Source: an uncultured Lachnospiraceae bacterium
GTDB lineage: Bacteria > Bacillota > Clostridia > Lachnospirales > Lachnospiraceae
NCBI GenBank assembly: GCA_946618155.1
Contig: CAMOKZ010000001.1
Location: forward strand, 1 to 47,169
DNA: 47,169 bases
Reading direction: 5' to 3'
The translations under genes and the position numbers were made by a program. Shown one piece after another: positions 12,505 through 47,169 of the stretch; within the stretch, counting starts at the first letter, position 1; every line of letters starts with the position of its first letter. The notes below the pieces were generated by a model. It did not search any database and was not told the origin of the DNA. It was given only the letters and a program-made list of their open reading frames with translations.

Positions 12505-13314
12505 TTAAACGGCCGCTCCGGTGTAAGTCTGTTTAACGATGATCTTGGCCGGGCACTTCTCCGCGCACTTGCCGCATCCGGTGCAGAGCGAGTAATCGAT
12601 GTGGGCGATGTTGTTCTCGACCTTGATCGCGCCGTTTTCGCACTGCTTCACGCAGAGTCCGCAGCCGCGGCATCCTGCGTCGCACTGGGTCTTCAGCACG
12701 ATGAATTTCTCCCGGTTGCTGCACTGCACCGTGTAGGCCGACCGCATCGGAATCAGCTCGATCAGGTGCTGCGGGCAGGCCGCCGCGCACCGGCCGCAGG
12801 CCACGCACTTCTTCCGGTCTACCTTCGCGATGCCGTCCACGATATGAATGGCGTCAAACTGGCAGGCCTCCACGCAGCTGCCGTAGCCGAAGCATCCCTG
12901 GGCGCAGAGCTTTCCGCTGACGCCGAGGGCAGCCGCCGCATTGCAGCTGTCGATGCCGACCAGGTTGCCCCTGGTCTTTGCCTTGCCGCAGGTTCCCGCG
13001 CACTTGACAAATGCGACCTTCTGCTCCTCCATCGAGGCGTCGCCGCCGACGATCGCGGAGATCTTCTCCGCCACCGGCTTGCCGCCGACCGGACAGATGC
13101 CCGCGTGGGCCTCGCCGGAAGCGATGGCCGCCGCCGCGGCGTCACAGCCCGCGTAGCCGCAGCCGCCGCAGTTGTTGCCGGGCAGGCATGCCCGGACTGC
13201 CACTTCTCTCTCATCCACCTCGACTGCAAATCTGCTGCCTGCGAAAACCAGCATGATGCCGATCACCAGGCCGATCAGGGCGAGGAGCGCTGCCGTAATC
13301 AGGATCAGTTTCAT
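12505..13314 (-). CDS. rnfB: Rnf complex subunit B (polyferredoxin)
   Basis: 269 aa. It has an N-terminal transmembrane helix and several CxxCxxCxxxCP 4Fe-4S motifs. It is the last gene of the rnf operon. Confidence 0.88.
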   Translation of the reverse strand: MKLILITAALLALIGLVIGIMLVFAGSRFAVEVDEREVAVRACLPGNNCGGCGYAGCDAAAAAIASGEAHAGICPVGGKPVAEKISAIVGGDASMEEQKVAFVKCAGTCGKAKTRGNLVGIDSCNAAAALGVSGKLCAQGCFGYGSCVEACQFDAIHIVDGIAKVDRKKCVACGRCAAACPQHLIELIPMRSAYTVQCSNREKFIVLKTQCDAGCRGCGLCVKQCENGAIKVENNIAHIDYSLCTGCGKCAEKCPAKIIVKQTYTGAAV

Positions 13315-13336
13315 CTGTTCTCCTCCTTTTCCGGTC

Positions 13337-13912
13337 TCAGCCGATGCTGCCGAAGCCGAAGAACGCCATTCCCATCAGGCAGGCGCAGAAAAGCACGATC
13401 GGGGCGCCGCGCAGCGGTTCGGGGATATCGTTCTCCGAGATGTGTTCACGGATGCTGGCCAGCAGCGTGATGGCGATCGTATAGCCCAGGGCTGTGCCGA
13501 AGCCGGAAGCCACGCTCTGGAAGAAATTGAAGCCGTCCGTTACGTTGTTGAGGGCCACGCCGAGCACGGCACAGTTCGTCGTGATCAGCGGAAGGTAGAT
13601 GCCCAGCGCCGTGTACAGGCCGGGCGAGGTCTTTTTCAGGAACATCTCGACCACCTGCACGAGGGCAGCGATCACGAGAATGAACACGATGGTCTGCAGA
13701 TAGCCGAGGCCCAGCGGATCCAGCACGAAATCATAGAGCAGGCTGGCCACGGCGGAGGCGATGGTCATGACGAAGATGACCGCGCCGCCGAGGCTGAGCG
13801 AGGTTTTGATCTTGTTGGAAACGCCGAGGAACGAGCAGATGCCGAGGAACTGGCTGAGCACGACGTTGTTCACGAAGGCCGCCGTCATGATGATAATGAT
13901 CAGGTTCAGCAT
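13337..13912 (-). CDS. rnfA: Rnf complex subunit A
   Basis: 191-aa polytopic membrane protein of the RnfA/RnfE family, in the conserved operon position. Confidence 0.88.
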   Translation of the reverse strand: MLNLIIIIMTAAFVNNVVLSQFLGICSFLGVSNKIKTSLSLGGAVIFVMTIASAVASLLYDFVLDPLGLGYLQTIVFILVIAALVQVVEMFLKKTSPGLYTALGIYLPLITTNCAVLGVALNNVTDGFNFFQSVASGFGTALGYTIAITLLASIREHISENDIPEPLRGAPIVLFCACLMGMAFFGFGSIG

Positions 13913-14583
13913 GCCGTTTCATCCTCCTTTCCGTCTTCGCCGCAGGCGCCGCAGGCTGCGCATCCGCCGCCCTCCACCATGTCGTTCGCCTTCGTCCGGA
14001 TGGACAGGGCGTTCATCGCCAGGGCGATGAGGCCGAGGATCAGGAAAGCGCCCGGTGCGCGCACGAGCATATCGATCGGCTTATAGAAGGAAGGCATCAC
14101 CTGCACGCCGCAGACGGTGCCGGCGCCGAGCAGCTCGCGGAAGAAGCTGATGGCCGTCAGGCTGATCGTAAAGCCGAGCCCCATGCCCAGCCCGTCGAAC
14201 AGGGACGGGACGGGCGGATTTTTGGAAGCGTACGCCTCCGCGCGCCCGAGGATGATGCAGTTGACGACGATCAGCGGGATAAACACGCCCAGCGAATTGT
14301 ACAGGCTGAGCAGATACGCCTTCATGAGAAGCTCCGTCACCGTAACGAAGGACGCCACGATGACGATGTAGGAAGGCAGTCTCACCTCATCCGGGATGAC
14401 CTTGCGCAGCAGGGAGATGACCAGGTTCGAGACGATCAGCACTGCCGTGGTGGACAGGCCCATGCCGATGCCGTTGATCACCGAGGTGGTCACGGCCAGC
14501 GTCGGGCACATGCCGAGCATCATGACGAAGGTGGGATTCTCTTTGATGATTCCGTTATAGATACGTTCCATACTCTGACTCAT
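13906..14583 (-). CDS. rnfE: Rnf complex subunit E, with a Cys-rich acidic C-terminal tail
   Basis: 225-aa membrane protein, paralogous to RnfA. The tail reads EGGGCAACGACGEDGKEDETAC. It overlaps the rnfA start by 7 nt. Confidence 0.85.
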   Translation of the reverse strand: MSQSMERIYNGIIKENPTFVMMLGMCPTLAVTTSVINGIGMGLSTTAVLIVSNLVISLLRKVIPDEVRLPSYIVIVASFVTVTELLMKAYLLSLYNSLGVFIPLIVVNCIILGRAEAYASKNPPVPSLFDGLGMGLGFTISLTAISFFRELLGAGTVCGVQVMPSFYKPIDMLVRAPGAFLILGLIALAMNALSIRTKANDMVEGGGCAACGACGEDGKEDETAC

Positions 14584-14598
14584 GATCTTCCCTCCTTC

Positions 14599-15216
14599 CT
14601 ACTGTGCAATCACGGTCTGATAGAAACTGATGGCCGCGTTCACCGCGTTCACCACTGCGCCGGAGGTCGTGGACGCGCCGGAGATCGAGTCGATCTCGTC
14701 TTCCGCCACGGAGCCGCCGCGCTTGTTTAACGTAAAGGAACTGGTATTGACGCCGGCGAACTGGCTCTTGAAGGAGTCCTCGTCGACGCGCATGCCCATG
14801 CCCGCGGTCTCGTTGAGGGTCGTAAAGGCGATGCCCTCCACGGTGCCGTCAGGCAGGAAGCCTACGGTCAGCGTGATCTCGCCATCAAAGCCTTCCATGC
14901 TGGTGGCGCTGATCGCCCAGCCGGCTTCCGCCCCGCCCGCGTCTGTTCCGCGGACAGCCTCATTGATGTAGCACTTGCCGAAGGCCCCGTCTCCGTATAC
15001 GGTGCCCTGCAGGTCTTCGATCTGCGAAGTGACCGCGTCGTCATAGGCAAACTCCGCGGCGTCCGGAAGGACGGTCTGGAAGGCCGCCAGGTTGGCCGCC
15101 ATCTGGTTGGCCGCGATCTGGTCCTTCGTCAGTTCATTGACGCCCGCCAGGGCGACGGCGGAGATCAGGCAGATGACCATCAGCACAAAGGCCGGTCTGA
15201 CATTCATCTTTTTCAT
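14599..15216 (-). CDS. rnfG: Rnf complex subunit G (FMN-binding)
   Basis: 205 aa. It has an N-terminal anchor and an FMN_bind domain with the flavinylation motif DSISGASTTS. Confidence 0.88.
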   Translation of the reverse strand: MKKMNVRPAFVLMVICLISAVALAGVNELTKDQIAANQMAANLAAFQTVLPDAAEFAYDDAVTSQIEDLQGTVYGDGAFGKCYINEAVRGTDAGGAEAGWAISATSMEGFDGEITLTVGFLPDGTVEGIAFTTLNETAGMGMRVDEDSFKSQFAGVNTSSFTLNKRGGSVAEDEIDSISGASTTSGAVVNAVNAAISFYQTVIAQ

Positions 15217-34529: not shown

Positions 34530-35726
34530 TCATTCTGCTTCCGCATAGTATTCGTGCACCAGGCTCCTGTACCCCAGTGCCCTGATGTCCGCGTATCTGG
34601 CGTCAAACCGCCCCTTTGTCCGCTTCCCGGTCAGCAGATAACGGATGCAGTCCTGGGCGTAATGGTCGATCCGCCGCAGGCTTTCGTCTGTCGTGATCAT
34701 CGGGAAATACCAGCGCGACCAGGTAAGGTCCCTCTCCCCCGCGTTTTCCAGGAGCTTGCGGTTAAACACGCGGATAAAGGCCGTCGCGGCGTGCCTGCCC
34801 TCAAGGCCGTTCCTCTTCCTCCACCGCTCCAGCGCCCTTGTTTTCCTGCGCATCTTGCCCATGATCTTCCGGACGGAAGCGGGGGCGATGTCCACCTCGC
34901 CCTCCCTGTACCGATAGCCGAGGAAAACAAAGCCTTCCTGCGGCGGGGCCAGCACTTCCTTATCCGGGTTGACCTTCAGGCCCTTTCCGGCAAGGTGCGC
35001 CCTGACCTCCCGGGCCAGCTCCTCCGTCTCCCCGCGGGAGGGGGCAAAGAGGATGATGTCGTCGGAATAGCGGGCGTAGGGGATGTCCGTCCCGGCAAAT
35101 TTAAGATCCAGGTCCCGCAGGTAAAGGTTCGCGTAAAAGCAGGCCTGGGGCGTCCCCGCCATGATTCCCTTCTGCTCGGTGATCCGCTCTCCCCCGTCCA
35201 GCACCCGGGGCTCCCGCAGAAGTCCGCCCAGAAAGCCGAGCAGGGCGGGATCATCCGAAAGCGTCCGGGCAAGAAGAGGATAAAACGCATCGATATCGAT
35301 GGAATTGAAATAGTTGCTCACATCCGTTTTGTAGGACCAGAGCGCGCCGATCCCCGGCCTGCCGGACAGGGCGCGGAAGGCCTGCTGGGCACTGTGCCCC
35401 GGCCTGAAGGAGTGCAGGTTTTCCGGAAAAAGATGGTCGTACCGGCGAAGGAGAAGGTAGGTCAGGAGCTTCAGCACCATGGTGTGCGCCCGGGGATAGA
35501 CGTACACCGTCCGCTTCTTCTGGGTGCTCCGCTTGCTGATCGCGGCCTTCCGGGGAAGCGGAAACGGCTCCCCGGCCATGATTCCCGCGCAGACCGGAAG
35601 ATATTCTTCTTTGTCGATAAACGCGCGGAGCTCCTCCAGACGGCCGGACGGGCCGCCCAGGGAAGCCTTGTAGGCGTAATACCTCTCCCACTCTTCCCGG
35701 ACCGAAAGCAGATCAAGCAGAGACAT
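34530..35726 (-). CDS. free-standing reverse transcriptase (group-II-intron-like RT fold with thumb/X-like C-terminus, no intron RNA)
   Basis: 398 aa, with all seven RT blocks: KKRTVYVYP (1), HSFRPGHSAQQAF (2a), YKTDVSNYFNSID (3), GIMAGTPQACFYANLYL (4), YARYSDDIILF (5; YSDD codons at 35061..35072), LKVNPDKE (6) and FVFLGYRY (7). The roughly 100-aa C-terminus is helical and basic (RKIMGKMRRKTRALERW...WSRWYFPM...IDHYAQDCIRYL), like a thumb/maturase-X domain. AGGAG RBS lies 9 nt upstream. Confidence 0.85.
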   Translation of the reverse strand: MSLLDLLSVREEWERYYAYKASLGGPSGRLEELRAFIDKEEYLPVCAGIMAGEPFPLPRKAAISKRSTQKKRTVYVYPRAHTMVLKLLTYLLLRRYDHLFPENLHSFRPGHSAQQAFRALSGRPGIGALWSYKTDVSNYFNSIDIDAFYPLLARTLSDDPALLGFLGGLLREPRVLDGGERITEQKGIMAGTPQACFYANLYLRDLDLKFAGTDIPYARYSDDIILFAPSRGETEELAREVRAHLAGKGLKVNPDKEVLAPPQEGFVFLGYRYREGEVDIAPASVRKIMGKMRRKTRALERWRKRNGLEGRHAATAFIRVFNRKLLENAGERDLTWSRWYFPMITTDESLRRIDHYAQDCIRYLLTGKRTKGRFDARYADIRALGYRSLVHEYYAEAE

Positions 35727-35996: not shown

Positions 35997-36434
35997 TCAG
36001 AACGGAAATTTGTCCGGGGCGCTGTCGATTGCCTTGCGGATCCGTTCTCTCACATAAGAACGGGTATTCCACCAGCCGTGATGGTCATAATAGAAGCGAA
36101 GGTAGGGAATGCCCGCCTTTTCGCAGTTCCTGCGCATCCTCTGCGCTTCCGACGACTCGTTCATCAGCTCGATGATGACCGCTGCTTTGCCGTCCCGGGC
36201 CAGCGCATAGACCACGCCTCTCCCTTTTCTGATCTCGTCGCTCTCCACCTGATATTCCGGGAAATCCTCCCGGAAGATGTGCTCGAAATATTCCCGGTAG
36301 GTCCCGGGATAATTAAACTGGTTTTCCTCCTTCGGCATGTCCGGTCCCCAGGAAACGCCGGAAGGCGTATCCGGCTTGCCTCCTCCGCCGCCTTTGCCGG
36401 AGCCGCCGCCAAAAAGACCCGATAAAAATCCCAT
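35997..36434 (-). CDS. hypothetical 145-aa protein: Gly-rich N-terminus plus a possible endonuclease-fold core (DUF2726/DUF559-like, weak)
   Basis: I prefer the ATG at 36434 (MGFLSGLFGGGSGKGGGGGK...), with AAGGAG 7 nt upstream. The segment AAVIIELMNESSEAQRMRRNCEKAGIPYLRFYY resembles the (I/V)E(L/V)D...H...D...L...GxxxxRF core of Vsr-like endonuclease-fold domains, but the usual acidic and His residues are not all present. Confidence 0.5.
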   Translation of the reverse strand: MGFLSGLFGGGSGKGGGGGKPDTPSGVSWGPDMPKEENQFNYPGTYREYFEHIFREDFPEYQVESDEIRKGRGVVYALARDGKAAVIIELMNESSEAQRMRRNCEKAGIPYLRFYYDHHGWWNTRSYVRERIRKAIDSAPDKFPF

Positions 36435-36505
36435 CACTCTTCTCCTTAAAATCATAACTGTCTGGCTGCTCAGCGAAGACGGATCGCTCCGTCATGCCAA
36501 ATCCC

Positions 36506-36534
36506 AGTATACCACAAACCTCCCCTGCTGTCAT
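36506..36534 (-). promoter_or_regulatory. sigma-A promoter driving the 145-aa ORF and the downstream structured segment
   Basis: Minus strand: ATGACA (36534..36529, overlapping the upstream stop codon), a 17-nt spacer, then TGgTATACT (extended -10; TATACT at 36511..36506). Confidence 0.6.
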
Positions 36535-37886
36535 CCCGCGCCGACCTTTGCCCGGACAAACCGGTAATTGTCCCCGCCGGCGTTTTTCTCATACCACATG
36601 ATGTAGGGATACCCGGCATCGTATTCCTTCGAAGCCTCATTGTACTGCTGCACCGTACCGTAGAGGATGAGGGTATTCTCCTCCACATCATAGGAATAGG
36701 GCATCTCATAGTAGTGCCCGGCAAAGCTGCCGGCATTGTCCAGGGTGGAGAGATAATAATTCTCCCCTGTCCGCTGCGGGACAAGCTGCGTGTCCGCGGC
36801 CAGCGCGTTCAGCGCCGCCTCGTCTGCGCTTCCCGCGATCTCCGCCAGGATATCCTGCAGGTCGCTTCGCGTGACCAGGTTATAGTCCGTCCCGCCGGAG
36901 GAGGTGCTGACGATCCTGCTATCCTGGTCATGCCAGAGATAGGCATACAGGAAAAGCAGGTAGGCGCGGTCCTTCGCGGAGAGATCCTCCGCGGAAAAGT
37001 CCATCTCCTGCGCCGGCGCGTAATTCGTCCTGTACTTGCAGAGCATGGCGCCCATGGAGGCCAGTCGCGCGATATCCTCCTGCGACGGGGTAAAATAAGC
37101 CGTGTGGGTAATGTCAGGATCGATCCCGTGGCCAAAGCCGGTCTCCCCGCTTGCCGCATAGCCGTCCGCAGCGGCGCTGCTGCCCGTCTCCGTCTCCTCC
37201 CCCGGCTCTCTGCCGTCATCCAGGAGGCCGCCTGCGCTGAAGGTCACGCCGCCGGAATACCCGGTCTCGTCCGGCGCCAGCCCGTCATCGGCAATGCCGC
37301 CGATCCCGGCGCTCGTCCCGTCGTCAAACAGATAGAGCTCGCTGATGCAGGTATCGTCATATTTCGATCCCTTGCGTACGCCGTCTATCCGCACGCTAAC
37401 CACGCCGTCGCTGATGAGGGGTGCGGGAAACCAGACGGAATACCCGTTCTGCGCATCCGTAAAGCTGTTAGCCGTCAGGGAAAGATCCACCGTGAACGAC
37501 TGCCCGCCCGTGGAGAAGACAAGAGAGCTTGGCGCGTTGTTCTCGTAAAACAGCTTCTCGGATTTCAGGAAGCCGTTCCAGATCCTGGCGCCGGTGACGA
37601 CCGTCCCGGCCGGAATAAACAGCTGGACGGACTCGCCCGTCCCGACGCCCGGGGCGCCCTCGGTCCAGCAGGAGGACATGCTGTAATCCTGCAGGTTGGA
37701 CGGGCTGTGGTCATAGCCTTCTTCCCACAGCTGTGAGCTCGCCGTAAACTCCGTGGCGAAAAGATAATTTTCATAGGCCTGCGCCTGCATCGCCGAAGGC
37801 CCCGCCGCAAAAGCCGCCGCGGCAAAGGCCGCGGCAGCGGCAAGTGCCGCTTTTCTCTTCCCTGCACTATTCCTGTTCCTGCTCAT
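36531..37886 (-). CDS. secreted protein with an N-terminal discoidin/NADase-type glycan-binding-like domain
   Basis: 451 aa with a signal peptide (KRKAALAAAAAFAAAAFAAGPSAMQA). The domain pattern SSCWTEGAPGVGTGESVQL...IWNGFLKSEKLFYENNAPS...GSKYDDTCISELYLF matches the F5/8-type-C-like modules common in Firmicutes exoproteins. Confidence 0.6.
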   Translation of the reverse strand: MSRNRNSAGKRKAALAAAAAFAAAAFAAGPSAMQAQAYENYLFATEFTASSQLWEEGYDHSPSNLQDYSMSSCWTEGAPGVGTGESVQLFIPAGTVVTGARIWNGFLKSEKLFYENNAPSSLVFSTGGQSFTVDLSLTANSFTDAQNGYSVWFPAPLISDGVVSVRIDGVRKGSKYDDTCISELYLFDDGTSAGIGGIADDGLAPDETGYSGGVTFSAGGLLDDGREPGEETETGSSAAADGYAASGETGFGHGIDPDITHTAYFTPSQEDIARLASMGAMLCKYRTNYAPAQEMDFSAEDLSAKDRAYLLFLYAYLWHDQDSRIVSTSSGGTDYNLVTRSDLQDILAEIAGSADEAALNALAADTQLVPQRTGENYYLSTLDNAGSFAGHYYEMPYSYDVEENTLILYGTVQQYNEASKEYDAGYPYIMWYEKNAGGDNYRFVRAKVGAG

Positions 37887-39552: not shown

Positions 39553-40497
39553 TTACTCCTGCCCGCCTTTAACGGACGCGAGGATATTCTCCGCAGCCCC
39601 TTCATCCAGCTGGGAACTGCACCGGATGTTCAGGGCGTAGAAACGGCCGTCCTCCAGCAGGATCAGCGAGGTGATGTCGCTCTCCGGGATCTCGCAGAGG
39701 AGCGCCTCCATCTCCCCGGCCCGGACCTTGGTGATCGTCCAGTCTGTCTTGATCCGGGAGTAGGCCTCCGCGTAGTCGTCCAGGGTCTGCAGATCCACGG
39801 GATCCGGCTCGGCGGGATCGATCACGCGGCTGCCGGCGGCGCTTACGCTGACGATGAGGCAGGGCGCTGCGGGCTCCGCCGTGTCATATTCCTTCATGCC
39901 CTCGATCATCGCCCTGTCCTGTTCGGACACGTAAAACAGTGAGCCGTACTGACGCAGGATGCAGTTCTCGTCGGCAGGGACCGCCTGGGTCCATTCCTCT
40001 GGCAGGCAGATCTGAAAGGCCGTGTCCACCGGTTCCCAGCTGCTCCCGTTATAAATGCTGTCCCAGGAGATGGTCGCCCACTGTCCGGCATAGGCGGTCT
40101 CATCGAAGGGCCCGAGCACCGGGAGCTCCTCGGCGGGCTCCGTCTCTGTTTCTGTCTCGGCCTCTGTTCCGATCTCTTCCTGGGCTTCCGGCTCCGCCGG
40201 CTCATCGATCCCGATCAGGATCAGTTCATCTTCCCCGTAGAGCAGTCTGCTGATCAGTTCCTCATCGATCTCGCCGTCCGCGGGCAGGCCGTTTGCCTCC
40301 TCATAGGCGCGGATGGCGGCCGCTGTCATCTCCCCCGCGATTCCGTCCGGCGTGCCGCAGTCAAACCCTGCGTCATTGAGGGCCTGCTGCACCTGCTCCA
40401 CCGTGGCCGCGTCATACTCGGCGTACGCCGCCGGCGCTGTCCCCAGACACCCGGCCATCACCGCCGCCGCGATCGCGATCGTTTTTCTCTTCATCAT
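39553..40497 (-). CDS. lipoprotein with a peptidoglycan-binding (PG_binding_1) domain, an acidic linker and an uncharacterised C-terminal domain
   Basis: 314 aa with a signal peptide and lipobox-like AVMAGC. VEQVQQALNDAGFDCGTPDGIAGEMTAAAIRAYEEANGLPADGEID is a PG_binding_1 motif. Its start overlaps the stop of the upstream 782-aa gene (ATGATGA). Confidence 0.7.
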   Translation of the reverse strand: MMKRKTIAIAAAVMAGCLGTAPAAYAEYDAATVEQVQQALNDAGFDCGTPDGIAGEMTAAAIRAYEEANGLPADGEIDEELISRLLYGEDELILIGIDEPAEPEAQEEIGTEAETETETEPAEELPVLGPFDETAYAGQWATISWDSIYNGSSWEPVDTAFQICLPEEWTQAVPADENCILRQYGSLFYVSEQDRAMIEGMKEYDTAEPAAPCLIVSVSAAGSRVIDPAEPDPVDLQTLDDYAEAYSRIKTDWTITKVRAGEMEALLCEIPESDITSLILLEDGRFYALNIRCSSQLDEGAAENILASVKGGQE

Positions 40498-42842
40498 ACT
40501 CTCCCTCCGTTCTTCGGTCTTACCAGCGTATCCCTGGCGTCCTTGAAGCCCTGGTCAAAGGCAATGCTGTCCCACTGCTTGTATTCGCTGTCCTTCAACT
40601 CCGCCAGGTCTATGCCGTATTTTGCGGCCAGTTTCCGGCCTGTCTCAAATACCAGCTTTTCCCGGTCATGGAAATACTGCAGGTCCTCCGGATCCATCTT
40701 CTTGTCCTTAAGTATCTTAGTGAGCAGGAAATCATAGACGGAGCAGACGTCCAGCATGTCATAGCGTGCGGTATCCTCCGCGGAAAGGCCATCCTGCGGG
40801 CACACGAAGGGATCGGGCCCGGCCTCGACAAGACAGGGATGGAGTTTCAGCGGGACATCCTTCATCGTGAGGGTGCCTGCCGCGTAACCCGCCTGCTGCG
40901 CGGCCGACGGGCAGGTAAAGCCCTGGGTGCGCAGATAGGCGTTCCACCGCCTGTGCTCCATCCAGGCCTGCACCAGATCCGTCTCATCGCCGGGCCGGAA
41001 GGCGGGCGCCTCGCCCTCATACCTTCTCGCGCGCGGCTCCCTGAGCCATACCCTGCTGATGCCCCCGAGGGCGAACAGCTTATAGGGCGCATGGACGGTG
41101 CGCGCGATATTGGCCCAGTATTTATACTCATCCTTGACGCGGGCTTCCTGCTTGCTCATGCTGTAGAGCTCGCTGGAACCGAAGGCCGCATCGGTAAGGT
41201 CGGCCATAAAGACGTTCCGGCAGCTGAACCTTTCCCTCAGCATGCCGGCAGGAAGGATGTACGCATTGCCGGCCTGCGGCTCTGCCTTCCTGACCGACTC
41301 CGCCAGCTGGTCGTCAAAGATGACCGGCACGATCACGGGGCAGCGTTCCTGCCCGGTGTGCAGCATCCGGCGCCTCAGGGCGCGGGACAGTTCCGAAGTG
41401 GTATAGATGTTCTTCTCATCCGAACCCAGGGCGACCACGTAGTAATCCGTCTTCTTCAGGAGCTCCTCCGGATAGTCCGTGATGCGCTCGGCGTCCACAT
41501 CATCGATAAAATCATCGCACACCGCGTAGGGCGGGGAAAACTCCGTGCGCCCGCTGCCGGGAAAGACCTTCAGGATATCCGATCCGCTCTCACAGCCGGC
41601 GAGCATCTCCGGACAGCTGTTCTCCAGCCTTTCCTTAAGCTCCGCGGCTGTCCTGGCCACGACATGGATAAAGAGCTGGATGCCGGCCATCTGGCCGCAC
41701 CAGTAGACCGTCTTGAAAACCTCCTCCGCGATGGAGCCGGCGCCGAGGATCGTCACATGGAGTTCGCGCACGGGCGTGACCGTATAGCGCGCGCCGTTCT
41801 GTCTCTGCGGCACCTTCACCGGCTCCTGCACCTCCCCGGTCAGCGGGAGGAACAGCGGCACGTCGACCATCAGGTTAAAGGCCATGTTCGCGTAGTCGCG
41901 GATGGGCCGAACCAGGACTTCCTTTACCGTCTCCGCCCGCGTGGTCGTGACATTGTTGATCATCGTCATGCCGTAGTCGCTCTGGCAGAACACGTAGATC
42001 CGGGTCCTGGGGATCCGCACGGTCTCCGTCTTTTTCTCCTTTTCCACGGACCGGTCTTCGGGATCCGGCCAGAGGATGCGGCAGCCCGGCTCGTTGAGCA
42101 GGCTGTTGGCCGACTCGATGTTCTGGTGTTCATCCTGGTCCATCAGGAAATAGTAGACCAGCTTTGACCGCTTAAGGGAAATATGCTTGAGATCCGTCTT
42201 CAGGCAGATCGCCCCGATCGCCGCCGCCCGGTCAAAAAGCTCCGTTCTCTGCTCCGACCCGGTATCGGGATAGGCGTCCGTAAAGATGATCAGCGGGCGA
42301 AGCCGCAGAAACTGCTTCGCGTCTCTGGTCAGCACCGCGTAATTCCTGTCCGCGGCAATGTCCTCCGCCAGCGTGACCGCGGATTCGTTCAGCTCGGAGA
42401 ACACGAATTTGCAGCGCCAGGGCCGCAGGGCAACGCGCATCCGCGGGAAAAAGCCCATGAGGATATCCAGCAATACAGCCCCGCCCAGGATAGGCGCGCA
42501 GATATTGAGCAGGGAGGAGACCACGCCGTACACGGCGGCCAGGACGGAGGCTTCTCCGCCGAATACCTTGATGCCCTTGATCAGATAATCGGTATAGTCT
42601 TCATCCAGGCTGAAGGACTGCAGCGTGTGCAGGAAGGCGTCGCAGAAATTCTCGATAAAACCGAAATCGGGATGCATCTCCCTGAAATTGACCACGAACC
42701 TGAGCAGGAAGATCAGGCCGAATACATAGAGCAGCAGAAACAGGAATGCGCTGCTGCGCCTGTGCTTGAAGATGAGATACGCGATATAGACGAGCACGCC
42801 GATCACGATCAGGCAAAGCAGGGATGTCTGCAGATAATACAT
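40494..42842 (-). CDS. 782-aa membrane protein: N-terminal TM bundle, Rossmann-like module(s), C-terminal RyR-like domain (tentative)
   Basis: It has 3-4 N-terminal hydrophobic helices and the dinucleotide-fold-like motif VTILGAGSIAEEV. The C-terminal segment AWMEHRRWNAYLRTQGF...LKLHPCLVE resembles the bacterial RyR domain pattern (HExW...GW...HPxLVP). No enzymatic motif is recognised. Confidence 0.6.
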   Translation of the reverse strand: MYYLQTSLLCLIVIGVLVYIAYLIFKHRRSSAFLFLLLYVFGLIFLLRFVVNFREMHPDFGFIENFCDAFLHTLQSFSLDEDYTDYLIKGIKVFGGEASVLAAVYGVVSSLLNICAPILGGAVLLDILMGFFPRMRVALRPWRCKFVFSELNESAVTLAEDIAADRNYAVLTRDAKQFLRLRPLIIFTDAYPDTGSEQRTELFDRAAAIGAICLKTDLKHISLKRSKLVYYFLMDQDEHQNIESANSLLNEPGCRILWPDPEDRSVEKEKKTETVRIPRTRIYVFCQSDYGMTMINNVTTTRAETVKEVLVRPIRDYANMAFNLMVDVPLFLPLTGEVQEPVKVPQRQNGARYTVTPVRELHVTILGAGSIAEEVFKTVYWCGQMAGIQLFIHVVARTAAELKERLENSCPEMLAGCESGSDILKVFPGSGRTEFSPPYAVCDDFIDDVDAERITDYPEELLKKTDYYVVALGSDEKNIYTTSELSRALRRRMLHTGQERCPVIVPVIFDDQLAESVRKAEPQAGNAYILPAGMLRERFSCRNVFMADLTDAAFGSSELYSMSKQEARVKDEYKYWANIARTVHAPYKLFALGGISRVWLREPRARRYEGEAPAFRPGDETDLVQAWMEHRRWNAYLRTQGFTCPSAAQQAGYAAGTLTMKDVPLKLHPCLVEAGPDPFVCPQDGLSAEDTARYDMLDVCSVYDFLLTKILKDKKMDPEDLQYFHDREKLVFETGRKLAAKYGIDLAELKDSEYKQWDSIAFDQGFKDARDTLVRPKNGGRV

Positions 42843-42912: not shown

Positions 42913-42941
42913 ATTATACAAAATGTCGGCCTTTTCTTCAA
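42913..42941 (-). promoter_or_regulatory. near-consensus sigma-A promoter for the 782-aa membrane protein gene
   Basis: Minus strand: TTGAAG (42941..42936), a 17-nt spacer, then TGTATAAT (extended -10; TATAAT at 42918..42913). A GC hairpin TGCCCGGC/GCCGGGCA follows in the leader. Confidence 0.65.
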
Positions 42942-42956: not shown

Positions 42957-45758
42957 TCATTCTTCCGCGTCAAGTTCTTTCAGCCGCTTTGCCGCCGCCC
43001 TGCGGATCCAGGGCTCCCTGTCCTCGGCCGCGATCCGTCCGAGCAGCTCCCTGTCCTCCAGGCGGGCGCATGCCGCCTCCCGGATCAGGGTATAGGGATC
43101 CTCCAGCGCCATCCGGGCAAGGAGAGCTTGGGTCTGCACTCTCCTGATCAGAGCCAGGCGTTTTGCACCCTCCGGCATACCCGCCAGAAGCTCCCGGAAA
43201 ACATCCGCGTCGCCAAGCTGTTCCAGTGCGGCCAGCCGCACGCCCTCACGCGGATCGCGTTTCGAGATATCCAGCAGCAGCTCCCTGTCAGCGCCGCTCT
43301 CCAGACGCCTGACCGCTTCGATCCGCACATCAGCGTCTTCATCCCCGCGCGCGGTCTGCCGGAGGATGTCCCGGCTTTCCAGCCGGCGCACAGCCGCCAT
43401 CCGCACATACGGATCCATATGCTGCTGCGCGATCCGGCCGAGGTCTTCCTGAGAGGTAAGCTGCCCGACAACGGCGATCTGCACGTCCAGATACCGGGTA
43501 TTGTTCAGGATGTGGCGAAGCAGCGCCTGGCTGCGGATCCTGCCGACCGCCGCTTTTTTCTCCTCTCCGGTCCACCGGCCCTTCTTGTCGAGGGCGATGG
43601 CGGCAAGACGCAGCGGGTTGATGATCTTTCCAATGTCAGACCCCGGTTTATCTCCCTGCTGTTCCTGCTGCTTCTGCTCTCTTTGCCGGTCCTGCCGGCT
43701 CTGCTCTTCCTGCTTCCATCCTGTAACCAGAAATTCTTCCGGGATAACGGGCACTTTCAGCGAGCTGCAGCCCGCAAAGGCGCCGTCCGGACAGACGGTC
43801 ACGCTCTGCGGGATCTGCACGTACTCAAGGTTCCGGGAATCAAAGAACGCCGATTCCTCGATCTCCTTTACCCCTTCCTGCAGGACGACCTTCCTGAGTC
43901 CCCGGCAGTGCGACAGGGTCATGCGGCCGATCTTCTCCACAGTGCCCGGTACGGTGAGTTCATACAGACCGGTACAGCCCTGCAGCATGCACACGCCCAG
44001 CTCGCGCAGCCCCTCATGGAGGGTGAGGGAGCGCAGGCCGGTGCAGCCGTCAAAGGCGTTATTGCCGATGGTGCGGACGCCTGCCGGCACATCGATGGCG
44101 GCCAGGCTCCTGCACGCGTCAAACACGGAGTAATGCAGCGCCTCCACGTGTTCAGGCAGACGGACGGCGGTGAGGGATGAGCACTCTTTAAACGCCCGCG
44201 GACCGATCTTCGTGATGCTGTCCGGCAGATAGACCGTGTCCAGACCGGAGCAGCCAAGGAAAGCCTCGTCTCCGATCTCCTCCACGCCCTCCGGGATCTC
44301 AATCGTCAGCAGATCCCTGCGGCCTTTGAATGCTCCGGGAAAAATGACCGTCACCGGGAGCCCGCCGTACTCCGGCTCGATCACGGCATGCGGTCCCCCG
44401 TGATACCGGGTGAGGTATATTCCCCCGTTTTCCACGATGTATTCAAAACCCGGAATCTGAGACAGTTCCCTGCAGCTGTTCGCGGAAAGCCAGTTGGCCA
44501 GCCGGACGGCCCTCTCCTCTTCGGTTCCCGCGTCATATTTCAGGCTGTGCTGCTCGCTGAGCTCTGCAAGATCCTCCGGCAGCACGCTGTCATCCAGATA
44601 GTAGAGCGAGATCCTCTTCTCCAGGGCAAAGGCAAGGCGAAGCTCCTCCACGCCTTTCCCTGCAAGGTATCCGCGGTCCACAAAGGCGATAAAACAGGCG
44701 CAGCCCCGGATGAGGCGCTGCGCATCGCCGGACGCGTCCCCGGCGCTGTCCATCACGACGCTGCCCTTTTCTCTCAGGTCATCGGCAAGCGCCCTTCCCC
44801 TCTCCCCGGTATAGCTTGCGCAGGCGTAGGTCTTTGCAGCGGTCTCAGACATCTCCCGGACCGCCATGGAATCATCGCGGATGATGGTGACGAAGCTGCA
44901 TCTGCTTCCCACGGAATAAGCGGCAGAGCCCGGCGCACAGTGAAGGGTCAGGCGCTTCTGCACCGGATTGATGGAGAGCTTTGCGCACCAGTTCTCATCA
45001 AACTGCGTGACAGAGGACGGAACATAGACATCTGTGACGGCTCCGGGGTCATAGACACAGCCGAAGGTCGCCATGCCGATCCTTTGCAGCGTCGGCGGGA
45101 AATGCACCTCGGTGACCTGCGTCTGGTCGAAGAAGGTCATGGACGTCTCCAGGACCTTAAGGCCGCTTCCGGCCGGATATTCCTCCGGGACATGGACGAC
45201 GCTGTCCCCGCCGCGATAGCGGAGGAGACGGACTCCGCCCACACACCGGCCGAACTCATATTCCGCGTCCTTTGCCGCCACGGCGGGTGAGAGCAGAATA
45301 CGGCGGGGTCTTGCTTCTCTCTCTTCGCCTTTTGCGGCGCATCCGGCACTTTCCAGCAGCTGTTCGATCCCATCCTCCCCTGCCCGGGGACAGGCAGAGA
45401 GATCAAAGTCCGCGAACTGCGCCCCGTCGTCCAGCTGGCAGACCAGAATGGTCTTCCCGAATTCCAGCGCCTGCGGCAGCTCATACCGGTTGATATAGCA
45501 GCTGTCAACGGACTGGCTCGTCACAAAAAGCAGAAAAAGCGCACAGTTCTCCTCGTGGGCGCGCAGGACCTCATCGTACGCATCGCCGATCTCCAGCCCC
45601 TCATCGTACCAGAACCGCCAGCCCTTCTCATACAGCCTTCTGAGTATGGGAAAGATTCTCTTCCTGTCCCGGTGCGAATAGCTGACAAAGATATACGGCT
45701 GTTCCTCATCCGCCGGAAACGGTGCGGTAATGCTTTCGTATGCCTGATGTTCCTTCAT
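42957..45758 (-). CDS. cytoplasmic multidomain TIR - LRR(BspA-type) - TIR-like - LRR(BspA-type) - HEAT-repeat protein
   Basis: I prefer the ATG at 45758 (MKEHQAYES..., 933 aa), with AGGGGGG upstream. TIR1 is aa 21-115 (nt 45414..45698): YIFVSYSHRDRKRIFPILRRLYEKGWRFWYDE...SCYINRYELPQAL, with the conserved Glu. TIR-like 2 is aa 309-392 (nt 44583..44834). The LRR_5-type repeats are at aa 165-290 and aa 440-670 (IGDEAFLGCSGLDTVYLPDSITKIGPRAFKECSSL...). A Gln/Glu/Arg linker follows. The HEAT/PBS-lyase-like repeats are aa 740-930 (DPYVRMAAVRRL, DADVRIEAVRRL, REGVRLAALEQL, EPWIRRAAAKRL). There is no signal peptide. Confidence 0.8.
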   Translation of the reverse strand: MKEHQAYESITAPFPADEEQPYIFVSYSHRDRKRIFPILRRLYEKGWRFWYDEGLEIGDAYDEVLRAHEENCALFLLFVTSQSVDSCYINRYELPQALEFGKTILVCQLDDGAQFADFDLSACPRAGEDGIEQLLESAGCAAKGEEREARPRRILLSPAVAAKDAEYEFGRCVGGVRLLRYRGGDSVVHVPEEYPAGSGLKVLETSMTFFDQTQVTEVHFPPTLQRIGMATFGCVYDPGAVTDVYVPSSVTQFDENWCAKLSINPVQKRLTLHCAPGSAAYSVGSRCSFVTIIRDDSMAVREMSETAAKTYACASYTGERGRALADDLREKGSVVMDSAGDASGDAQRLIRGCACFIAFVDRGYLAGKGVEELRLAFALEKRISLYYLDDSVLPEDLAELSEQHSLKYDAGTEEERAVRLANWLSANSCRELSQIPGFEYIVENGGIYLTRYHGGPHAVIEPEYGGLPVTVIFPGAFKGRRDLLTIEIPEGVEEIGDEAFLGCSGLDTVYLPDSITKIGPRAFKECSSLTAVRLPEHVEALHYSVFDACRSLAAIDVPAGVRTIGNNAFDGCTGLRSLTLHEGLRELGVCMLQGCTGLYELTVPGTVEKIGRMTLSHCRGLRKVVLQEGVKEIEESAFFDSRNLEYVQIPQSVTVCPDGAFAGCSSLKVPVIPEEFLVTGWKQEEQSRQDRQREQKQQEQQGDKPGSDIGKIINPLRLAAIALDKKGRWTGEEKKAAVGRIRSQALLRHILNNTRYLDVQIAVVGQLTSQEDLGRIAQQHMDPYVRMAAVRRLESRDILRQTARGDEDADVRIEAVRRLESGADRELLLDISKRDPREGVRLAALEQLGDADVFRELLAGMPEGAKRLALIRRVQTQALLARMALEDPYTLIREAACARLEDRELLGRIAAEDREPWIRRAAAKRLKELDAEE

Positions 45759-45787
45759 CGCGCAGCCCCCCTCTGCAGGAAAACACA

Positions 45788-45823
45788 TGAAGGCGCCTCC
45801 GGATCCCCATCCGATGACGCCTT
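45788..45823 (-). terminator. weak terminator-like hairpin between the histidine kinase and the TIR gene
   Basis: Minus strand: GAAGGCG (45823..45817) pairs with CGCCTTC (45794..45788) around a 22-nt loop, followed by ATGTGTTTTCC. The U-tract is poor. Confidence 0.25.
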
Positions 45824-45833
45824 CCTCAGCAGG

Positions 45834-47169
45834 TCACTTCGTATTGTCTGTTCTCTTTTCATTATACAGGATTTTGGGGAGCCGGACTACAAAAGTATTG
45901 CGGTATCTGCCGCCCTCCGCCGGCCTGCTGCTGACCGTGATCTTTCCGCCGTGCAGGTCCGCGATATTCTTCGCGATGGCAAGCCCCAGCCCGTGCCCTT
46001 CCACGGTCCTGCTGTGGGAAGGCTCCGCCCGGTAGAAGCGGTCAAAGATGCGCTCCCTGTCCGCCTGGCTGATCTCCTCCCCGATGTTTTCCACGGCAAG
46101 GAACGCGCTGCGTCCTTTCCCGGTCACGCTGACGGTGATCTCACTTCCCGGATCGGCGTATTTGATCGCATTGTTCAGCAGGATGACCGTCAGCTGACGG
46201 AGCATATCCCCGTTTCCCCTGCACAGGACATGCTCATCGATGCAGGTCCCGATGGTCTTGCCGGCGTCGAAGGCCGCGCTCTCAAGCGGCAGGATCGCGC
46301 CCAGCACCGCGTCCCCGAGATCCGTTTCTTCCAGGGGCACCGATGTTCCCGCCCTGTCCATGCGGGCGAGGGTCAGCAGGTTCTGGATCATCCTGCCGGT
46401 CCGCCGCACTTCGTCCGTGATCGCGGTGAGGGATTCGTTTTCCCCGATCTCCCCCTCAAGCGCCTGGGCGTTCGCGCTGATCACGGCCAGGGGCGTCTTC
46501 AGCTCGTGACTGGCGTCCGAGACGAACTGCCGCTGCCGGTCAAAGGCGTCCTGCACCGGCCTGATCAGGGCCCGGATAAGAATCGCCGCCCCGATGCAGA
46601 GGAGCAGGCAGGCGATGGCCGCGATCAGGGCGCTGGCTCTGAGCACCCTTCCGGCAGCCAGCAGCTCCAGCCGCTCGTCCAGCACGATCAGGAGCTGTTT
46701 TCCCTCCCGGCTGGTAAGGGAATAAAACTGGGTGCCGATATGCCCCTCGCTTTTTCCGCTCTCCAGGACAAGGGCCGTCATGTCGGCGACCTGTTCGTCG
46801 GAGTACAGGTAGGACCGGTCACTGGTCCAGGACTCCACCGCGCCGTCATCTCCTATGGTCACCACATAATAGTTGCCCAGAGCCGCCAGGGCGTTCCCGT
46901 TCCCCAGCCTGGGCGGCTGGCCTTTCTCTTCCGGGGCGCTCTTCCTGCCGGTCCTGCCCTGCCCGCGGCCCCTGTTCCCCTCCGGCAGGTCCGTGCCCGC
47001 CGCATCCGGCTCCGGCACATCCGTATCCGGCTCCGGCACACGCTCCCCGCTGTTCTCCGCCAGGATGGCCAGGGTACTTTTCGCCTGGGCGGAAATGTTC
47101 ATCCGGTTCATATAATTGATGAAAAAGACGATCCCCGCCGTGACCATAACCAGCACGGCGCATACCAGG
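45834..47169 (-). CDS. sensor histidine kinase; N-terminus probably beyond window edge
   Basis: It has the H-box FVSDASHELKTPLAVI and the HATPase_c motifs N (LLNNAIKYA), G1 (ENIGEEI) and G2 (GHGLGLAIAKNI). The reading frame stays open upstream of the GTG at 47156 to the window end. Confidence 0.85.
   Translation of the reverse strand, partial: LVCAVLVMVTAGIVFFINYMNRMNISAQAKSTLAILAENSGERVPEPDTDVPEPDAAGTDLPEGNRGRGQGRTGRKSAPEEKGQPPRLGNGNALAALGNYYVVTIGDDGAVESWTSDRSYLYSDEQVADMTALVLESGKSEGHIGTQFYSLTSREGKQLLIVLDERLELLAAGRVLRASALIAAIACLLLCIGAAILIRALIRPVQDAFDRQRQFVSDASHELKTPLAVISANAQALEGEIGENESLTAITDEVRRTGRMIQNLLTLARMDRAGTSVPLEETDLGDAVLGAILPLESAAFDAGKTIGTCIDEHVLCRGNGDMLRQLTVILLNNAIKYADPGSEITVSVTGKGRSAFLAVENIGEEISQADRERIFDRFYRAEPSHSRTVEGHGLGLAIAKNIADLHGGKITVSSRPAEGGRYRNTFVVRLPKILYNEKRTDNTK

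Follow-up and report, generated by a model that had tools for sequence, protein, structure and literature searches.

A rare family of predicted cytoplasmic gut-bacterial proteins that join a candidate NAD+-cleaving TIR domain to a divergent TIR-like domain and BspA-type leucine-rich repeats

Fusion of a TIR domain directly to a repeat sensor, without a nucleoside triphosphatase (NTPase), is a recognized class of protein architecture (PMC9153377). In a survey of E. coli, single-protein TIR systems, including a TIR-TPR system (“TIR-II”), protected against phage, and the TIR active site was required; the same survey remarked that features of Toll-like receptors (TLRs), such as leucine-rich repeats (LRRs), are seemingly absent from bacterial TIR systems (PMC11350192). 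SpbK of B. subtilis is a TIR enzyme that cleaves nicotinamide adenine dinucleotide (an NADase) and has YonE of phage SPbeta as an interaction partner (PMC12847820), and in DSR2, a SIR2 NADase, the C-terminal part forms an alpha-solenoid (PMC11850899). TIR-TPR proteins, SpbK, and DSR2 are precedents for NADase effectors that act without a STAND NTPase. Here we analyze a gene from an uncultured Lachnospiraceae bacterium whose predicted 933-residue product contains a TIR domain (TIR1), a short block of BspA-type LRRs (LRRa), a second TIR-like domain (TIR2), about nine further BspA-type LRRs (LRRb), a linker, and a HEAT-like tail, in that order. The gene lies on the minus strand of the first 47,169 nucleotides of contig CAMOKZ010000001.1; “the window” refers to this whole stretch. 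Our preferred interpretation, to which we assign a probability of about 0.5, is that the query protein is a single-chain cytoplasmic NADase sensor-effector in which ligand binding by the solenoids would activate TIR1.

The TIR-LRR-TIR-LRR-linker-HEAT order had been proposed in an earlier sequence-only reading of this DNA, and it was borne out by Pfam segments and structure models. That reading had also presented the protein as a TIR effector wired directly to two kinds of repeat sensors; the architecture stands, but the class was already recognized (PMC9153377). Our literature search found no description of a bacterial protein that combines TIR with BspA-type LRRs. The concept of linking a TIR to a solenoid is established, and the unusual part of this protein is its core of one active-type and one degenerate TIR, together with the BspA LRRs and the HEAT-like tail.

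The candidate enzyme domain is TIR1. In isolation, residues 23 to 134 matched Pfam TIR_2 with 42.5 bits, above the cutoff of 28 bits. A profile of the family's TIR1 domains searched against PDB sequences matched NADase-type TIRs best, namely SARM1/TIR-1, Cat1, AbTIR, and a bacterial TIR protein. Residue E93 aligned with the Glu of the HKE motif in C. elegans TIR-1/SARM1, the Glu of the YEL motif in the bacterial TIR protein, and a Glu of the TIR-SAVED structure 7qqk, residues that we take to be the catalytic ones (SARM1 E642 and its equivalents). E93 belongs to a YELPQ motif that had been singled out as holding a catalytic-type Glu, and this assignment gained weight from its invariance in all 44 family sequences aligned. 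About 25 further TIR1 positions were likewise invariant, as were the PF..DE residues of a motif that precedes the domain. This pre-TIR motif (PF.ADEE.PY) is kept ahead of TIR1 whether TIR1 is N-terminal or internal in the protein.

The corresponding position in TIR2 behaves differently. The sequence-only reading had described a second TIR domain that retains a Glu. E371 and E372 are indeed present in the query protein, but they are not conserved, and a Glu retained here does not speak for activity: the E372 position holds Glu only in the nearest relatives of the query (P0001 to P0003 and P0026), and the other 39 of 43 sequences have K, D, G, T, or other residues there. The contrast between an invariant E93 and a variable E372 position suggests that TIR1 is probably an NAD+-cleaving enzyme domain and that TIR2 is most likely a noncatalytic pseudoenzyme.

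Assignment of TIR2 to the TIR fold required structural comparison because the PDB sequence search was uninformative, returning for the TIR2 profile only spurious matches to Leu-rich LRR proteins and a weak match to Cat1. Isolated TIR2 matched TIR_2 at 19 bits (E = 0.0018), which is below the cutoff. An AlphaFold model of the domain built from a 34-sequence alignment had a five-strand beta/alpha fold and a predicted local distance difference test score (pLDDT) of 82, and its top PDB match in Foldseek was the SARM1 TIR domain (E = 1.4e-4). Further fold matches, with TM-scores of about 0.5 to 0.66, were the DNPH1/nucleoside deoxyribosyltransferase (NDT) fold, the TIR-APAZ protein of SPARTA, the SpbK TIR, and the TRIF TIR; proteins of the DNPH1/NDT fold score about as well as TIRs against this model. 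In a search of 1.84 billion representative sequences, the TIR2 profile also matched regions that the TIR1 profile scores as TIR, in proteins with two to four tandem TIRs. From the modeled fold and these cross-matches, we infer that TIR2 is a divergent TIR-like domain. The expectation that both modules have TIR folds therefore withstood profile and structural comparison, TIR1 by exceeding the Pfam cutoff and TIR2 by its fold match to SARM1. Among the proteins weakly matched by the TIR2 profile, P0159, P0173, P0180, and P0190 consist of three or four tandem TIRs and little else; P0159 has four TIRs in 610 residues.

Most of the remainder of the protein is predicted to be solenoid. Pfam matches for the whole protein were LRR_5 (182 bits), TIR_2 (53 bits, in two stretches), HEAT_2, and HEAT. 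LRRa alone scored just 15 bits against LRR_5. A profile built from LRRa of 20 clade members matched every one of 61 canonical BspA-LRR proteins but no sequence in a set of 61 shuffled controls, which supports its assignment as a genuine, if short and irregular, BspA-type LRR block. In the model of LRRb, strands recur every 23 residues with pLDDT values of 96 to 98, giving about nine full repeats plus caps, as the sequence-only reading had counted. The isolated C-terminal tail (residues 716 to 933) exceeded the cutoffs for both HEAT_2 (33.2 bits, cutoff 27.7) and HEAT (28.1 bits, cutoff 23.5), and a search of PDB sequences with this tail returned no match. About five HEAT repeats had been predicted here; the model instead has 16 short helices of about 10 residues, corresponding to about seven to eight repeats of about 26 residues. 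The full-length AlphaFold model had a mean pLDDT of 86 and a predicted TM-score (pTM) of 0.42, so that the model can be trusted for single domains but not for how they are placed relative to one another. A fold search with this model gave LRR structures alone, the best of them of the BspA/TpLRR type (4fs7, 6mlx [TpLRR], 4gt6, and 4h09), and was uninformative about the overall architecture.

Neither an NTPase nor an export or membrane signal was detected. No NTPase was found among the Pfam, NCBIfam, and PADLOC matches of the query protein, its sequence lacks a Walker A motif (GxxxxGK[ST]), and every structured residue in the model was assigned to a TIR, LRR, or HEAT domain, with no globular region left over. 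Hydropathy analysis of the query protein revealed no signal peptide or transmembrane segment, the maximum over 19 residues being 1.15. The absence of a STAND/NB-ARC P-loop and the intracellular location, both proposed from the sequence, are thus supported.

The choice of start codon does not alter this picture. The minus-strand open reading frame (ORF) spans 42957..45788; its first ATG would yield 943 residues and the ATG at 45758 yields 933. We favor the shorter form because three observations agree: the N-termini of the closest homologs align with it, P0001, a database protein that differs from the query at only three residues, is itself 933 residues long, and a Shine-Dalgarno-like GAGGGG motif lies 9 nucleotides 5′ of that ATG. 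The first ATG (45788) is likewise preceded by GGAGG, and the 10 extra residues of the longer form (MCFPAEGGCA) are possible. Neither form has a hydrophobic N-terminus, as the longest possible N-terminal extension consists of these 10 nonhydrophobic residues. The features of the gene are listed in Table 1.

Table 1. Coordinates of the gene, its predicted domains and residues, and associated loci (window positions unless a locus handle is given)
Feature	Position	Strand	Basis
Whole gene, 933 aa plus stop	42957..45758	-	ORF list; near-identical P0001; homolog N-termini; ribosome-binding-site (RBS)-like GAGGGG
Conserved pre-TIR motif, aa 8-20, ESITAPFPADEEQ	45699..45737	-	P13, F14, D17, and E18 invariant (44-sequence alignment)
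TIR1, aa 21-140, probable NADase-type catalytic domain	45339..45698	-	Pfam TIR_2; PDB profile matches; pLDDT mostly >90
E93 codon (in YELPQA), putative catalytic Glu of TIR1	45480..45482	-	Invariant 44/44; codon verified
LRRa, aa 164-300, irregular, ~4-5 BspA-type repeats plus beta-hairpin cap	44859..45269	-	Clade profile; modeled beta-solenoid strands
TIR2, aa 306-435, divergent TIR-like, probably noncatalytic	44454..44843	-	Subthreshold TIR_2; model; Foldseek
E372 codon (in GVEELRLAF), TIR2 counterpart of E93	44643..44645	-	Alignment; codon verified
LRRb, aa 437-680, N-terminal hairpin cap plus ~9 regular 23-aa BspA-type LRRs	43719..44450	-	LRR_5 188 bits; model
Q/E/K/R-rich flexible linker, aa 681-715	43614..43718	-	Composition; pLDDT 39-52
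HEAT-like alpha-solenoid, aa 716-933, ~7-8 repeats of ~26 aa	42960..43613	-	HEAT_2; HEAT; model
RT_UG26 and RTasCOG2852 pair	34530..35726 and 35997..36455	-	PADLOC
Further TIR-solenoid cluster loci	L042 12599..18310; L043 15319..18484; L041 1..1029; L036 2547..4518

A search of 5.8 billion proteins recovered two full-length relatives at 60% identity, P0002 and P0003 (921 aa), and about 50 proteins that have the TIR1, TIR2, and LRR core in common. The majority layout in this family is LRR-TIR1-TIR2-LRR, and the clade of the query protein has TIR1-LRRa-TIR2-LRRb. Among the relatives analyzed, the HEAT tail was limited to P0001 to P0003. In nine or more of the representatives that belong to the query's own clade (P0009, P0140, P0141, P0143, P0144, P0153, P0162, P0166, and P0185), the linker and HEAT repeats are replaced by a conserved hydrophobic C-terminal tail (KKSH...ILLA..AAAAGVQ..GLFDILGWL) composed of a hydrophobic helix and an amphipathic motif, which is probably a tail anchor. 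Other relatives end at the LRR cap without a further C-terminal module. A 550-aa TIR-LRR family that lacks TIR2 was also present among the relatives, and the TIR2-type module itself occurred in 59 representative clusters at E ≤ 1e-10. The only name given to the family proteins in NCBI records is “leucine-rich repeat protein.”

The family is rare and confined in its distribution. Scanning one genome for each of 185,579 species yielded 34 loci encoding the TIR1-TIR2-LRR core, all of them in Clostridia (Lachnospiraceae, Oscillospiraceae, Ruminococcus, Acutalibacteraceae, Faecalibacterium, and Blautia) or Eggerthellaceae. Most of the loci came from metagenome-assembled genomes (MAGs) of the ruminant gut, several of which hold two or three copies, and the closest relatives of the query protein are found in rumen-type MAGs. 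No family member was found among the viral contigs of IMG/VR, nor in phage or plasmid records, where the only matches were generic TIR-only ones. A signal-peptide-like N-terminus was present in only 1 of 54 TIR-bearing relatives versus 33 of 66 non-TIR BspA-LRR matches, which argues that the LRRs of this family are intracellular and that its members are cytoplasmic, as predicted for the query protein.

Sequence divergence is unevenly distributed along these proteins. Between the query protein and its orthologs at 60% identity, identity was 65% in TIR1, 72% in LRRa, 65 to 68% in TIR2, 55% in LRRb, 26 to 32% in the linker, and 55% in the HEAT tail. In all eight pairs of paralogs encoded in the same genome, identity decreased from TIR1 to TIR2 to the flanking LRRs (73, 59, and 44 to 50% in one pair). 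A conserved effector coupled to diversifying sensors would fit this gradient, which we regard as supportive and not decisive. Copies from Eggerthellaceae, which belong to the Actinomycetota, were 52 to 56% identical to Clostridia copies over 600 to 775 residues, a similarity that fits horizontal transfer within the habitat. The rare and patchy occurrence of the family in two phyla of a single habitat, together with its multiple copies per genome, is similarly supportive of evolution in the manner of a conflict system.

The closest described systems include the TIR-TPR proteins. In these and in the query protein, an N-terminal TIR with a catalytic Glu is fused to a solenoid in one cytoplasmic chain and no adenosine triphosphatase (ATPase) is needed; a solved 824-aa TIR-TPR protein (9m0n) was among the PDB matches of the TIR1 profile, at 19 bits, and TIR-TPR or TIR-Sel1 genes adjoin several members of the query family. 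However, the solenoid is built from TPR repeats in those proteins and from BspA-type LRRs and HEAT-like repeats in the query, where an LRR block also separates the first TIR from a degenerate second one, and sequence kinship is restricted to the TIR. SpbK and DSR2 each bring about abortive infection as one protein that depletes NAD+ and directly engages a phage protein, much as is proposed here for the query, and the alpha-solenoid of DSR2 is reminiscent of the query tail. They show no detectable sequence relation to it outside the TIR, their sensor domains differ, and the effector of DSR2 is SIR2.

Plant TIR-type nucleotide-binding LRR receptors (TNLs) and the bacterial Avs-STAND proteins share with the query the logic of an intracellular TIR effector and a C-terminal repeat sensor. 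The NB-ARC, NACHT, or STAND NTPase of those proteins is absent from the query, whose LRRs are of the BspA/TpLRR class, and because there is no STAND NTPase the oligomerization switch of nucleotide-binding LRR receptors (NLRs) is missing. We therefore rejected membership in the NLR/STAND group (plant TNL, Avs, or bNACHT), for which a central NTPase or Walker A motif would be expected. Animal TLRs likewise combine LRRs and TIR in one polypeptide, and most relatives of the query even have the LRR-TIR order. Unlike TLRs, the query has no signal peptide or membrane span between LRR and TIR and is predicted to be wholly cytoplasmic; its LRRs are of a different class, and its TIR belongs with the enzymes and not with the adaptors. 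The query thus resembles TLRs by convergence.

Two other assignments were considered and rejected. The LRRs of the query belong to the same repeat family as those of surface BspA/TpLRR proteins of gut and oral bacteria (4fs7, 6mlx, and 4gt6). Those proteins are exported or cell-surface located, whereas the query family has TIRs and lacks export signals; an exported BspA surface adhesin was rejected for this reason. A Thoeris system (ThsB with ThsA) was rejected because no ThsA-type partner was found: no ThsA-type family (SIR2/TM-SLOG or Macro) was among the recurrent neighbor families, no neighbor was conserved in the 34 loci, and ThsB models scored just 12 to 13 bits.

How might such a protein work? 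In the resting state, the solenoids, TIR2, or both would hold TIR1 off. The trigger would be the binding of a foreign protein to the LRR or HEAT surfaces; a phage or some other mobile element is the most plausible source of that protein. TIR NADases require TIR-TIR association to form an active site, and in the query the composite site could be built either between molecules or between TIR1 and TIR2 of one molecule, with TIR2 serving as a pseudoenzyme partner or as a brake. Once activated, TIR1 would use up NAD+ and the growth of the infected cell would halt, resulting in abortive infection. Since the loci hold no conserved downstream effector gene, depletion of NAD+ is a likelier outcome than synthesis of a signal to which a partner would respond. 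The exchangeable C-terminal module, which is absent, a membrane tail-anchor helix, or a HEAT domain, may alter localization or specificity.

A more specific and decidedly speculative version of this mechanism, which we think will probably prove wrong, is that the active and degenerate TIRs constitute a built-in asymmetric dimer, an NADase switched by a ligand of the LRR or HEAT repeats, inside a single chain or a small oligomer, without NTPase-driven assembly. If it were true, bacteria would have arrived by convergence at an LRR-to-TIR pattern-recognition receptor that is activated by a new principle, and in which the exchangeable C-termini (tail anchor or HEAT) would set where sensing occurs and what is sensed.

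The genomic surroundings of the family suggest that the gene acts alone. When the 348 ORFs found there were clustered all versus all, no family was common to more than three of the 34 loci. The neighbors of the gene in the window (a 782-aa membrane protein, a peptidoglycan [PG]-binding protein, a 402-aa ORF, an F5/8-type protein, and a reverse transcriptase [RT]) had no homolog in the 34 related loci, the sole match of a window neighbor being to one generic histidine kinase. The family gene is therefore stand-alone and has no conserved partner gene. What does recur is the presence of other TIR-solenoid genes, which adjoin family members at several loci. A 713-aa TIR-Sel1 gene lies beside a family member at L002 (7419..9557), a TIR-DUF6273 gene at L034, and genes for small TIR proteins at L024 and L026. 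At L005 (6895..13619), in the cultured strain Ruminococcoides intestinale CLA-JM-H38, a run of small TIR genes is accompanied by a TPR gene, and four TIR genes fall within 7 kb. Two TIR-TPR genes are located near P0025, a 1,903-aa TIR-TPR/Sel1-TIR gene neighbors P0004, and a TIR-TPR gene with a faint NB-ARC match is in the vicinity of P0013. The TIR-TPR neighbors seen near family members encode proteins of 736, 772, and 811 residues.

The evidence for a defense role of the family is circumstantial. In its favor, a candidate defense pair containing a UG26 RT lies 7 kb from the gene in the query window, other TIR-repeat genes often adjoin family members, and a TraG/VirD4-type coupling-protein gene is present at two loci, at one of them together with ParA. 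A number of observations weigh against a role as an antiphage sensor-effector. We surveyed 149 genes within 4.5 kb of family members at about 30 loci, counting families without a background control. The sequence-only reading had proposed a survey for enrichment near known defense genes; in ours, the recurrent Pfam families were mostly housekeeping (hydrolases, FeoB, GTPases, radical SAM, and sugar biosynthesis), the others being TIR_2 (four occurrences), Sel1 (three), and LRR_5 (two). PADLOC matches among the neighbors were single and scattered (dGTPase, MzaA, CARF-PDDEXK, mad genes, AriA, and a UG29 RT with a DnaG-like gene), so that the association of the family with defense islands is weak. 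The query window is ordinary chromosome, with Suf, Rho, hexokinase, sugar ABC transporter, and MarR genes, and the window genes scanned around the TIR gene included no mobile-element markers. The query protein fits no system model of PADLOC-DB v2.0.0; its best match, SAVED_TIR at 27 bits, covers only residues 20 to 99. The low pTM of the model makes the interdomain arrangement unreliable, and neither autoinhibition nor TIR1-TIR2 contacts can be read from it. Furthermore, some TIR domains that keep the Glu are not NADases, and the repeats of almost any repeat protein would be expected to change faster than a catalytic domain does.

The same surroundings could reflect housekeeping or physiological signaling, with the TIRs serving as adaptors or in regulated nucleotide processing and the solenoids binding endogenous partners, outside any immune function; NAD+ or nucleotide homeostasis, sporulation, and stress signaling are examples of such roles. 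The mostly housekeeping flanking genes would be accounted for, as would the location of one member with an amylase gene on one side and the spoIIIA operon on the other, the histidine kinase adjacent to the family gene in the window and at L028, and the resemblance of TIR2 to the DNPH1/NDT fold as well as to TIRs. Yet the family, with 34 loci among the genomes of about 185,000 species, is much too sparse and patchily distributed to serve a core function. It has no conserved partner gene, it is multicopy with divergent repeats, and it clusters with other TIR-repeat genes. In addition, the invariant catalytic-type Glu argues for use of TIR1 as an enzyme rather than as an adaptor. We consider a physiological role unlikely. 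Action on a eukaryote, either the animal host or rumen protozoa, appears quite improbable. Here the protein would be freed by lysis or a nonclassical route and its LRRs would bind host molecules, on the model of pathogen TIR proteins that interfere with host TIR signaling. Surface display or host binding is the typical role of BspA-type LRRs, signal peptides are present in about half of the non-TIR matches, and the family is confined to gut and rumen bacteria; moreover, classical signal peptides are likewise missing from the known TIR virulence factors of bacteria. On the other hand, 53 of 54 members have no export signal, the neighborhoods show no conserved secretion-system genes or targeting domains, the tail-anchor helix of some relatives would keep the bulk of the protein in the cytoplasm, and the carriers are commensal anaerobes rather than pathogens.

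An NADase-type active site in an accessory, multicopy, and variable gene also calls to mind an interbacterial toxin of the polymorphic type with TIR1 as an NAD+-depleting warhead, and conjugation-type genes do occur at two loci (a TraG/VirD4-type coupling-protein gene at each, with ParA and DUF2800 at one of them). However, the family gene has no conserved immunity gene beside it, and the absence of any conserved neighbor already weighs strongly against this explanation. Delivery domains of the LXG, WXG, Rhs, or PT type were not detected in the Pfam scan, the toxin-like domain sits at the N-terminus or in the middle of the chain and not at the C-terminus, and there is no export signal, making a toxin very improbable.

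Whichever function proves correct, the family is clean, small, and experimentally tractable, and it represents a rare bacterial combination of LRRs with TIR, against the survey remark that LRRs seem to be lacking in such systems (PMC11350192). If these proteins are sensor-effectors, they would add LRR-based and HEAT-based sensors to the NTPase-free TIR systems and would provide a natural tandem of active and pseudo-TIR domains, with a bearing on how TIRs are switched off and on without a STAND module. It would also follow that rumen and gut Clostridia, which are poorly sampled by defense screens centered on E. coli and Bacillus, hold expanded and clustered repertoires of TIR-solenoid proteins (LRR, TPR, Sel1, and HEAT). 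If the query is not a defense protein, it is an accessory protein of modest interest.

Several genes near the TIR gene in the window deserve individual description. The large membrane protein noted as its neighbor in the sequence-only reading does adjoin it: this 782-aa protein (40494..42842, minus strand) carries hydrophobic helices in its N-terminal part, and neither Pfam nor PADLOC gave a match to it. It is not a conserved partner, and a two-gene system was rejected, since tblastn found the membrane protein at 0 of 34 loci; beside the ortholog P0003, the next gene encodes a short-chain dehydrogenase instead. The membrane gene is likely transcribed apart from the TIR gene because it has its own promoter-like site (TTGAAG-17-TATAAT, 42941..42913) and RBS. 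On the other side, 45 to 75 bp upstream of the TIR gene and on the same strand, is a histidine kinase gene (HisKA and HATPase_c domains, 45834..47156, minus strand). At L028, an ORF pair (12594..14847) directly downstream of the family member includes a kinase that is 32% identical to this one as its second ORF (13267..14847), and the first ORF of the pair may be the response regulator of that kinase. Two-component systems are common, and the kinase adjacency in the window and at L028 could be due to chance.

The RT had been described as an orphan about 7 kb from the TIR gene. The distance is indeed 7.2 kb, but the RT is not an orphan. It is a full-length UG26 RT (PADLOC RT_UG26, 535 bits, positions 1 to 396 of 398), and the 152-aa ORF beside it matched RTasCOG2852, a COG2852-like accessory model for defense-associated reverse transcriptases (DRTs), with 177 bits. 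The two genes form a candidate two-gene defense-associated RT system. Between this pair and the TIR gene is a gene for a 451-aa protein (36531..37886, minus strand) that matched NADase_transloc (PF25302) with 80 bits. PF25302 is an F5/8 type C-like domain whose name derives from the translocation domain of streptococcal NAD glycohydrolase. In this protein it is probably a mere discoidin-like binding domain, and the link to NAD a coincidence of name. The window contains no tRNA and no second TIR gene. Elsewhere in the family, a cassette comprising Acetyltransf_CG, a 100-aa ORF, and an 82-aa ORF with an Smr domain occurs twice at L042 (1934..2851 and 6080..7216), with both copies located within 5 kb upstream of P0004.

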